IMG/VR virus record: IMGVR_UViG_2675903606_000001 | DNA length: 7,125 nucleotides | Origin: a virus | Taxonomy: Monodnaviria; Loebvirae; Hofneiviricota; Faserviricetes; Tubulavirales; Inoviridae | Strand: one strand, 5' to 3' | Shown here: one piece after another, positions 190 through 1,314 of the stretch | Layout of the letters: each line of letters starts with the position of its first letter | How positions within the stretch are numbered: position 1 is the first letter of the stretch | The notes under the pieces: generated by a model | What the model was told of the DNA's origin: nothing | The model's database searches: none | What the model saw: only the letters and a program-made list of their open reading frames with translations | Made by a program: the position numbers and the translations under genes

Positions 190-1314
190 CTATTTCAACG
201 GAAAACGTTGAGTAGCAATTGCTGCATCCAATTTATTTTTAGCTATTGCTGAGCGTTCCGGTTTAAATTGATAGTCGCCGTAATAATTATCATCATTTGC
301 ATCATTCCTTATCCTTATATCAACACCGAGATCCTTATAATCGATGCCTTTCGACAACTGGCGAGTCATTTTTATTTCTTTTCTTTGTCCCTTATCAATC
401 CATTCACTTATTGAATATGTAGCACCTGTAGTATCTTCAGCAACATGATATTTATCTCTTAGTTCGTGTAAAGCTTGACGTCTATCAGCGTCATTCCTAA
501 TGTTCAATACTTTTCCCAACTCATCATAATATTGGTTTTCATCTCTAACTATAAATTTCATGTCCGCACTAAGGTTATAGTTGGTTTTATTATCAATAAT
601 GAAAACATACTCGATTTTCCCATCCTTCACATTAAGACTCTTTAGATCAATCGGGAAGTCTGATTTTGATGTATCATATTGTTTTGTAAGGGAGTTATTT
701 TGGAATGAATTATTTTCAAAACCTCTATCATAGAAAGGAGTGAATCTCATTTTGAAATATTGCGTATATGTTACTTCAAAGGGATCGTAACCTTTGTATA
801 TGGCTCCTCCCATTAATACTAAAAATGCAATAAACAATGAAAAGCTGAAGAAAGCAGGGCCAAGGCTAGGTGGTATTTTCTTTATGCTGTCATAACACTT
901 TCCATTAGCATCTTCAGATTTCAATATTGGTAAGTTAGACTTCGATAGAACGCCACCATTTTTAACCAAAACAATCAAAGTAATATTTTCCTTTGGCAGG
1001 ATGCGGTCAATGATTATTTTGTTATCTTTACATTCAATGCTAACATTATTAGCTGAGATAAGAGATATCGACTTGCTTTTTGGTATTGTAATGGTTACGT
1101 TTTTTTCTTTCTCTTTTCCTTTGTTCGTAACTGTGAACATGACTGTATATCCAGTTATGCTTTGTGTTGTGTGCTCTAATATATGTTCATATGCTAAGTA
1201 AAGTTGTCTAATACGAAATGTTGAAAAAAATTTATTCAAAATAAGAGCAACAAAGAAGGTTGCTACTGCTCCTGCAATTTTCCCTAGAAGTGCATTCATT
1301 TGGTTGATATCCAA
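190..1314 (-). CDS. Hypothetical two-helix membrane protein (374 aa), AT-rich prophage cargo gene of unknown function
   Basis: Long uninterrupted ORF. Predicted hydrophobic helices at about aa 10-30 (LGKIAGAVATFFVALILNKFF) and aa 150-172 (PAFFSFSLFIAFLVLMGGAIY), with a charged C-terminal domain of ~200 aa. About 30-34% GC by hand count on sampled lines versus ~48% in the neighbouring gene. Start is ambiguous: the track start at 1314 is TTG; the first ATG is at 1297-1299; neither has a strong Shine-Dalgarno. No recognisable catalytic motif. Confidence 0.7.
   Translation of the reverse strand: MDINQMNALLGKIAGAVATFFVALILNKFFSTFRIRQLYLAYEHILEHTTQSITGYTVMFTVTNKGKEKEKNVTITIPKSKSISLISANNVSIECKDNKIIIDRILPKENITLIVLVKNGGVLSKSNLPILKSEDANGKCYDSIKKIPPSLGPAFFSFSLFIAFLVLMGGAIYKGYDPFEVTYTQYFKMRFTPFYDRGFENNSFQNNSLTKQYDTSKSDFPIDLKSLNVKDGKIEYVFIIDNKTNYNLSADMKFIVRDENQYYDELGKVLNIRNDADRRQALHELRDKYHVAEDTTGATYSISEWIDKGQRKEIKMTRQLSKGIDYKDLGVDIRIRNDANDDNYYGDYQFKPERSAIAKNKLDAAIATQRFPLK

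Follow-up and report, generated by a model that had tools for sequence, protein, structure and literature searches.

An exchangeable cargo gene in the dif-proximal slot of an Escherichia coli filamentous prophage and its candidate role in phage protection

The window analyzed here is a DNA stretch of 7125 nucleotides (IMG/VR record IMGVR_UViG_2675903606_000001) that is, as judged by sequence, a nearly complete, dif-integrated filamentous (Inoviridae) prophage of the UPphi/CUS type from E. coli. The core phage functions are all assigned by Pfam to open reading frames (ORFs) other than the gene under study, which matches none of them and is referred to below as the cargo gene (190–1299, minus strand). 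Comparative genomics identifies the cargo gene as an exchangeable accessory (moron) gene in the dif-proximal slot of the prophage. Our best explanation as a whole is that the gene is exchangeable slot cargo that encodes a membrane protein and protects against phages, and we assign this reading a probability of approximately 0.5. As hot-spot cargo of an integrating inovirus, the gene represents an already known kind of element. What appears to be new is the exact position of the cassette boundaries, the finding that the dip in guanine-plus-cytosine (GC) content originates in amino-acid composition and is shared by all slot occupants, the size, architecture and distribution of the cargo-protein family, and the presence of two deeply diverged family alleles in the same slot.

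The cassette slot

Related prophages align with the window at 92–98% over two flanks, 59–180 and 1383–1913, and are unrelated to it in the interior. Positions 59–180 are kept at 95–98% in prophages with other cargo, and two loci (L004 and L005) lose their homology to the window after 180 and regain it at 1383 or 1407. By these alignments, the cargo gene fills a cassette slot of approximately 181–1382 between the hairpin of the phage attachment site (attP) and the orf140 gene. Within the prophage, the gene has the att/dif site on one side and the regulatory-replication module on the other.

The slot interior is replaced by at least six other gene sets in collinear prophages. The occupants include an AbiJ_NTD4+DUF7014 protein ('STM4504/CBY_0614', PADLOC candidate PDC-S32), a DpnII/MboI-like PD-(D/E)XK nuclease (PADLOC Aga_Helical-REase, PDC-S35) together with a DUF6953 protein, the zinc-binding protein ECs_2282 together with a 159-residue protein, and other pairs of unknown proteins. 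A further occupant is a 363-residue paralogue of the cargo protein (WP_001534184.1), which is 29% identical to it (hhalign probability 100%, E=7e-39) and is found in the same slot in E. coli CUWW06 (locus L034, 426–1517). On this comparison, two deeply diverged alleles of one family alternate at a single locus. The paralogous gene is also located at the end of a 9565-bp circular 'plasmid' record of E. coli TUM14759 (NZ_CP128883.1), which probably represents a UPphi-type inovirus in its replicative form, assembled as a plasmid.

How frequently does the cargo gene occupy the slot? Among 5426 complete E. coli genomes, the prophage backbone, counted with orf140-repressor and with pII-g8p, is present in approximately 160. 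A first count of 669 genomes was discarded as inflated, mostly by a 70-nt attP/terminator piece that resides on plasmids. The cargo gene is found in 10 of the approximately 160 backbone-carrying genomes, with one additional copy at 67% identity, and the paralogue WP_001534184.1 is found in 17 E. coli genomes. Approximately 94% of the backbone-carrying genomes are devoid of the cargo gene, and approximately 83% carry no family member in the slot. Therefore, the gene is dispensable for the phage. A preliminary description of this DNA had suggested that the gene was acquired separately from the rest of the phage and had named uniform presence in all related prophages as an argument to the contrary. 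The gene is not uniformly present (10 of ~160), and separate acquisition is borne out by comparative genomics, namely by the variable slot content and by the count of 10 (+1) of ~160 genomes, rather than by composition.

Comparison with the prophage of E. coli UTI89 (locus L002, 8894–10700) provides a view of how the slot is exchanged. The two prophages are 100% identical from 83 to approximately 1882 of the window, a block of approximately 1.8 kb that covers att, the cargo gene and orf140. Beyond this block, the repressor, pII and G5P are 84–96% identical, and the structural modules are unrelated, as UTI89 contains DUF2523 and a different Zot and secretin. Because an entirely identical 1.8-kb block stands beside diverged genes, the comparison indicates that different inoviruses have recently exchanged their left arms, with recombination as the source of the mosaicism. 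We propose that the attP hairpin region (59–180) and orf140 (from ~1383) would act as homology arms and that recombination between co-resident inoviruses would swap the intervening cassette of approximately 1.2 kb. Homologous recombination between the hairpin and orf140 would constitute a simple mechanism for cargo turnover, and the same route has been suggested for cassettes in the filamentous prophages of Vibrio (PMC11630473).

The orf140 gene is kept at 92–96% beside differing cargo and stands beside every cargo type in its phage lineage. It encodes a hydrophobic protein and exhibits the highest GC content in the window (47%, with 0.45 at the third codon position, GC3). We considered orf140 as an obligate partner of the cargo gene and rejected this candidate, as orf140 is absent beside family members in other inovirus lineages (L003, L011 and L018).

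A conserved, hairpin-containing element of approximately 45 nt, GGTAAAGTTCGGGTGTCACAGAACCCCGAACCGCTTCGCGGT, lies ahead of the family gene in a number of different inoviruses (L003, ~10090–10200; L011, ~7630–7750; L012; L018; L007, 9870–9920). The same element also stands ahead of the family gene in a chromosomal island that is ridden with insertion sequences (IS) and contains no other inovirus genes. The element thus appears to travel with the cassette.

The attachment region

The conserved left boundary of the slot is the attP region (83–182, plus strand), which is defined by its sequence, an inverted repeat and the fold of its single-stranded DNA. It contains a perfect XerC arm, GGTGCGCATAA, at 85–95, and the spacer and XerD arm diverge; in a linear reading, the spacer from the XerC-like arm to the XerD-like arm is 11 nt rather than 6 nt. 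An inverted dif-like partner is found on the other strand at approximately 156–180. The canonical 28-nt E. coli dif sequence is absent, at up to three mismatches, from the window and from locus L007. Window positions 1–99 match the right end of the UTI89 prophage, and the window from 83 onward matches its left end. Because the two prophage ends overlap over 83–99, the crossover is placed in this segment.

Positions 83–180 of the plus strand fold into an imperfect hairpin of approximately 98 nt (−30.7 kcal/mol, z=−7.4), which is reminiscent of the folded single-stranded attP of CTXphi. The inner stem of this hairpin is an inverted repeat with 24-nt arms at 105–128 and 141–164. On the minus strand, the RNA of the inner stem is followed by UUUUC, with a folding energy of −38.8 kcal/mol, and on this strand the inner stem is assigned as the cargo-gene terminator.

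A 70-nt piece of the attP/terminator hairpin (window 108–179) is also present at approximately 480 places on E. coli plasmids with 93–94% identity. In pECOS88 (locus L038, 1501–1571), the piece is located directly 3' of the gene for an 'abortive infection family protein', beside IS remnants; this protein and the AbiJ-like cargo of sister prophages share 60% identity. The arrangement suggests that ColV/IncF plasmids captured an inovirus fragment consisting of cargo and hairpin.

Base composition of the cargo gene and the slot

The preliminary description had presented the ORF at 190–1314, which is present on the minus strand with 374 codons counted from TTG, as a low-GC island. The island is real, and its contrast is smaller than was claimed. 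The GC content of the ORF is 33.3% (375/1125) vs 40.7% for the remaining window (chi-square p=4.3e-6), so that exact computation does distinguish the gene from the rest of the window, and the lowest-GC 1125-nt stretch of the window (minimum 0.330, from position 226) coincides with the cargo gene. The estimates that had been made from sampled 60-nt lines of the gene (23–47%, mean ~32%) are close to the exact values for such lines (25–43%, mean 33.1%), as is the estimate for the adjacent 140-residue gene (~48%; exact value 47.0%). The range of ~40–55% given for most phage genes was too high, as the other genes range from 36.3 to 42.8%.

The GC deficit falls on codon positions 1 and 2. In comparison with the pooled other phage genes, the cargo gene is poorer in GC at position 1 (0.40 vs 0.49, p=0.0014) and at position 2 (0.32 vs 0.41, p=0.001), and GC3 does not differ significantly (0.284 vs 0.321, p=0.18). 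Thus, of the two marks of a foreign island, a lower overall GC content is observed and a difference at synonymous sites is not. The cargo protein is rich in Lys, Asn, Ile, Tyr and Phe, and the residues Phe, Tyr, Met, Ile, Asn and Lys (FYMINK) account for 39.6% of it vs 28.3% of the other phage proteins. Therefore, the island mirrors a protein that is rich in AT-rich codons. Given that GC3 is 0.53 in the flanking host genes, the phage is AT-rich as a whole, and the cargo gene is its extreme mainly through amino-acid content. The low-GC island is largely an amino-acid-composition effect within an already AT-rich phage.

The low GC content is shared by the genes that replace the cargo gene. All ten of the alternative cargo genes in the slot are at 32–36% GC, and orf140 is always at 47–48%. 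Therefore, the low-GC island is a property of the slot, whatever its occupant. Furthermore, all of the cargo-family members examined are 7–21 GC points below their surroundings irrespective of the host, with 32–33% vs 41–42% in E. coli inoviruses and 30–41% within contexts of 55–59% GC. Low GC is thus a standing property of the cargo family and of the slot and does not mark a particular donor. The AT-rich donor invoked in the preliminary description finds no footing in these data, as GC3 is the same as in the rest of the phage and both the family and the slot occupants are AT-rich whatever the host. In our proposal, the low GC content would combine the typical composition of mobile cargo with the AT-codon-rich amino-acid content. 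As a caution of method, the GC dip alone said little, and the real evidence of mobility came from comparative genomics.

Translation start and expression

The preliminary description had pointed to a TTG at 1314 as the start of the longest ORF and to the first ATG at 1299, and both codons are present. It had also described the start context as non-canonical. This view does not hold for the start codon, as ATG 1299 is a conserved canonical start, and it applies to the Shine-Dalgarno (SD) sequence, which is weak. TTG 1314 is merely the first codon past an in-frame TAA. The start is assigned to ATG 1299 because this codon is conserved in the homologues, aligning with residue 1 of every one of them, because the reading frame of the Citrobacter homologue (locus L011) does not include the TTG, and because the annotation of the Prokaryotic Genome Annotation Pipeline (PGAP) and the PHROG profile both begin at ATG 1299. 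The cargo gene accordingly comprises 369 codons, from ATG 1299 to a stop codon at 190–192, and is identical to WP_001555908.1 in the PGAP annotation. The 15 nt between the two candidate starts (1300–1314, minus strand) are, by homologue comparison, a noncoding leader.

Neither candidate start has a good SD sequence, in agreement with the preliminary description. TTG 1314 has no anti-SD match, and ATG 1299 has only a GGA located 10–11 nt upstream, whose duplex (−3.1 kcal/mol) is weaker than any other in the window. The SD sequences of pII (−3.7 kcal/mol) and pI/Zot (−4.1 kcal/mol) are likewise weak. The GGA (1310–1312) is the sole SD-like element and forms part of a conserved TTGGAT motif (1309–1314). 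Five homologues have AATTGGAT in common upstream, 9–12 nt ahead of the same ATG, and the weak-SD motif is kept across homologues that are 61–73% identical. The initiation region is nearly unstructured (−5.2 kcal/mol).

The repressor, orf140 and the cargo gene are co-oriented leftward in a string that is headed by the repressor and ends at the strong attP/terminator hairpin. The cassette-specific 5' leader of the cargo gene (1315–1382, minus strand) belongs to the variable segment of approximately 181–1382. Ahead of it, at 1381–1402 on the minus strand, is a hairpin with a 9-bp stem, a GAAA loop and no U-tract, which begins 4 nt past the orf140 stop codon; the RNA of 1360–1410 folds with −14.9 kcal/mol. 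This hairpin may serve in attenuation or stabilization of the orf140-cargo transcript. A consensus scan detects no sigma-70-like promoter on the minus strand between orf140 and the cargo gene. Because no promoter lies directly upstream, expression of the cargo gene probably depends on read-through of the repressor-orf140 transcript past the hairpin at 1381–1402. The arrangement is analogous to that of lambda cI-rexAB, in that a leftward repressor-orf140-cargo string would be read through in the lysogen, possibly with attenuation. Attenuated read-through in the lysogen would fit the earlier idea of regulated expression. We propose that the cargo gene would be transcribed in the lysogen as the last gene of this string, with termination at the attP/terminator hairpin, and would be translated from ATG 1299 with its weak SD sequence.

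Architecture and conservation of the cargo protein

The AlphaFold2 model of the cargo protein has a mean predicted local distance difference test score (pLDDT) of 93.3 and a predicted template modelling score (pTM) of 0.75. The predicted structure consists of a first transmembrane (TM) segment (residues 2–27), a first beta-sandwich (33–136), a second TM segment (146–168), a helix (173–191) and a second beta-sandwich (194–345) that includes a helical hairpin (254–283) and is followed by a C-terminal helix. Of 75 relatives, 67 are likewise predicted to have two TM segments, and no signal peptide or lipobox is found in the cargo protein. By the positive-inside rule, the first domain is predicted to face the cytoplasm and the C-terminal domain the periplasm. 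On the model, the product is a real inner-membrane protein of an uncharacterized family, with two TM helices and two beta-sandwich domains.

A profile search retrieves 189 family clusters, 32 of them at E<=1e-30; the locus scans used the profile of an alignment designated A1, as the profile of a wider alignment, A2, was too divergent. The orthologues all comprise exactly 369 codons, and the ratios of nonsynonymous to synonymous substitution rates (dN/dS) are 0.05 and 0.09, which indicates purifying selection. The first beta-sandwich, between the TM helices, is conserved and contains the invariant residues N59, E65 and S128. The second, C-terminal beta-sandwich evolves fast and contains the invariant residue N237. 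Residues 6–365 of the 374-residue form match phrog_17621 over the whole profile (1–363/363; E=6e-200, 664.7 bits). PHROG 17621 is a family without annotation, so that this full-length membership says nothing on function.

These observations bear on two deflationary readings of the gene. The absence of an annotated function and of a Pfam family would be compatible with a chance open frame or a pseudogene in AT-rich noncoding DNA. However, the 189 clusters found by the profile search (32 at E<=1e-30), a dN/dS far below 1, a pLDDT of 93 and the PHROG match at 6e-200 exclude a spurious ORF. The preliminary description had suggested a possibly recent acquisition from an AT-rich donor and possibly low translation; taken further, this reading would make the gene an ill-adapted and, in effect, neutral passenger. 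The GC difference (33.3% vs 40.7%), the weakest SD sequence in the window and the rarity of the gene among related prophages are in line with such an import. Against these points stand a GC3 that equals that of the other phage genes, strong purifying selection (dN/dS 0.05–0.09), a strictly conserved length with a confidently predicted fold, and the retention of the weak-SD motif across homologues that are 61–73% identical; moreover, the relatives are all AT-rich relative to any host, so that no donor can be named. We consider a neutral passenger improbable and retain the reading of a selected, exchangeable cargo gene.

Database searches place the protein outside the described families. Nothing informative is found for it in Pfam, PADLOC, NCBIfam, Rfam or deposited phage genomes. 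A tblastn search against the deposited phage genomes, I2-2 included, returns no match, and PADLOC-DB 2.0 gives no hit at E<=1 for the cargo protein and one marginal chance hit for the 75 relatives. Fold searches of PDB and BFVD return generic beta-sandwich matches only and no full-length fold analogue. The beta-sandwich domains resemble carbohydrate-binding and adhesin modules. A search for the accession numbers in the literature and in the DefensePredictor supplements gave no result.

Genomic contexts and proposed function

What is the biological function of the cargo protein? The contexts of about a dozen of the 189 clusters were inspected, some of which were uninformative. In these contexts, the family gene stands alone, with no conserved partner, and occupies a cargo position of a mobile element. 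It directly follows a helix-turn-helix (HTH) repressor gene in the Citrobacter, 6EVA-type and Kluyvera-like inoviruses, all of which are devoid of orf140. In a Pseudomonas Pf-like inovirus, it is located at the regulatory end, a few kb from TerB and BrxC/BrxD genes. Other members adjoin the integrase of a P2-like prophage, accompany O-antigen acyltransferase genes in the cargo region of an HP1-like prophage, or stand between NACHT/AAA_13 genes and a DUF2971 gene, between HicAB and an MqsA-like module, or beside a DUF1778-GNAT toxin-antitoxin pair on Enterobacter IncF plasmids.

Because the slot is shared with Abi-like and nuclease-like genes, because of these contexts of the relatives, and because comparable hot spots are published as defence loci, a membrane-located role in phage exclusion or abortive infection is the most likely function, at odds that come to even at best; its basis is association in the contexts inspected. 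The accessory hot spots of Vibrio filamentous prophages are enriched in defence genes (PMC11630473). Likewise, of P4 satellites with only unknown-function genes at defence loci, six of eight randomly chosen gave phage protection (PMC13586616). In this proposal, the cargo protein would shield the lysogen, and hence its prophage, from other phages. Its site of action would be the cytoplasmic membrane, and its mode either a block of genome entry (superinfection exclusion) or the triggering of membrane damage (abortive infection); the faster-evolving C-terminal domain would determine specificity. We tentatively extend this proposal, with less confidence than we have in the reading as a whole, to a new single-gene anti-phage defence or exclusion family that shuttles between inoviruses, tailed prophages, plasmids and defence islands. 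If this is true, the tiny dif-integrating inoviruses of E. coli are vehicles for rotating defence genes.

Several known systems resemble the cargo gene in part. Lambda RexAB, P22 SieA/SieB and T4 Imm are inner-membrane proteins encoded by non-essential immunity-region prophage genes, and the co-orientation of the cargo gene with the repressor and its lack of a promoter of its own likewise suggest expression in the lysogen. The cargo protein differs from them in that it combines two TM helices and two beta-sandwiches in a single gene, and the Pfam and PADLOC scans reveal no sequence similarity to the RexB, SieA/SieB and Imm families, nor do PDB and BFVD give a specific fold match to them. The AbiJ-like STM4504/CBY_0614 protein shares with the cargo gene the slot in sister prophages, a low GC content (34.7%) and the same attP/terminator element at its 3' side, and it has a 60%-identical copy with this element on ColV-type plasmids. 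However, this protein is soluble and unrelated, so that the locus is common to the two and homology is absent. The kinase-kinase-phosphatase (KKP) and PfiAT modules of Pf inoviruses are accessory genes at the regulatory end that affect competing phages (PMC11341870), and a Pf-like prophage carries a cargo-family member at the same regulatory end. These modules differ in being enzymatic multi-gene modules without homology to the cargo protein.

The position at the regulatory end could also reflect an accessory function in the inovirus life cycle, such as exclusion of related phages only, modulation of extrusion or envelope stress, or a membrane toxin that stabilizes the prophage. The family is found at the repressor end of at least four lineages (UPphi, CUS/DUF2523, Citrobacter and Pseudomonas Pf-like), the cargo gene adjoins another membrane-protein gene, orf140, and accessory regions of inoviruses are described as encoding exclusion factors and toxin-antitoxin or kinase modules (PMC11341870, PMC12328805). 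However, such an accessory is dispensable, given that ~94% of the backbone genomes lack the cargo gene and ~83% lack any family member, and the family also occurs in tailed prophages, plasmids and chromosomal islands without an inovirus. We regard a function restricted to the inovirus life cycle as unlikely.

Variable accessory ORFs beside dif are known for the UPphi, CUS and Ypf phages (PMC7307601, PMC4266046). CUS-1 orf1/orf1a, Ypfphi YPO2271/2272, the reverse-strand ORFs of UPphi901 and the variable locus of Vibrio prophages occupy the same slot position; like the cargo gene, they lie between att and the repressor/replication module in reverse orientation, and they vary among near-identical phages and have no known function. 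The attL-side unknowns of CUS-1 are named orf1/orf1a in the Ypfphi review and are reported without database homologues (PMC4266046). By position and strain rather than by sequence comparison, the cargo copy of UTI89 (O18:K1:H7) is very probably one of the two. The puvA gene of CUS-1 was considered as the counterpart of the cargo gene and was rejected, as the same review has puvA as a receptor-binding virion protein (PMC4266046). The papers on the dif-side accessory regions (PMC4266046, PMC7307601, PMC11630473) left the protein, the family, its distribution and the cassette boundaries uncharacterized. Extra-intestinal E. coli, Yersinia pestis and vibrios commonly carry filamentous prophages at dif, and no genes other than the few accessory ones are candidates for the fitness effects ascribed to these prophages. 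The attL-side slot of E. coli UPphi/CUS phages is a cassette exchanger, and its occupants yield a short list of candidate defence genes.

Such fitness effects raise the question of whether the cargo gene might serve lysogenic conversion or host fitness and have nothing to do with phages, for instance as an envelope protein that aids colonization or stress resistance in extraintestinal pathogenic E. coli (ExPEC). The O18:K1:H7 strains UTI89 and NU14 carry an identical gene in their CUS-type prophage, and the CUS-1 and Ypf prophages are tied to modest fitness gains in vivo (PMC4266046). The resemblance of the beta-sandwich domains to carbohydrate-binding and adhesin modules and the location of one relative among O-antigen acyltransferase genes would also be consistent with such a role. 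However, the CUS-1 mutant with reduced fitness was in puvA and not in the cargo gene (PMC4266046), the protein, with two TM helices and neither a signal peptide nor a lipobox, belongs in the inner membrane rather than on the surface, the relatives are also found in bovine E. coli and in Pseudomonas and metagenomic contigs that have no relation to ExPEC, and the other slot occupants are Abi-like and nuclease-like. We consider this role, too, to be unlikely, and phage protection by an exchangeable membrane protein remains our preferred reading.

Other features of the prophage

The proteins of the window were assigned by a Pfam scan, and PHROG, PADLOC and NCBIfam profiles were also applied. Next to the cargo gene on the minus strand are orf140 (1407–1829), a conserved membrane-protein gene of 47% GC that matches phrog_4174 (1e-84; function unknown), and an HTH repressor gene of the Xre/cI type (1928–2374; HTH_3, 1.4e-9; Phage_CI_repr, 1.9e-4). 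The plus strand encodes the replication initiator pII (2546–3598), the single-stranded DNA-binding protein G5P (3610–3927), the major coat protein g8p (4141–4383), the attachment protein G3P (4430–5689), a DUF5455 protein at the position of gene VI (5689–6030) and Zot/pI (6031–7125). A small virion gene of 28 codons, G7P-2 (3930–4016), is present in the PGAP annotation and is below the threshold of the ORF list.

At the DNA level, the sole match of the window to deposited phages is gene I of Lineavirus I2-2 (77%). The window is placed in the UPphi group because this similarity fits the description of the group as dif-integrating relatives of IKe and I2-2 (PMC7307601). A tandemly duplicated dif-region prophage of E. 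coli SCPM-O-B-12142 (NZ_CP144928) is 99.8% identical to the window. Positions 1–17000 of locus L001, which is taken from NZ_CP144928.1, contain a tandem prophage array with at least two complete copies and part of another at the left edge, sited in the terminus region beside degraded fimbrial genes and IS3. The Gly-rich repeats of g3p (window 4915–5175) generate long spurious reverse-strand ORFs and explain the 15-nt length difference between the window and its best database match.

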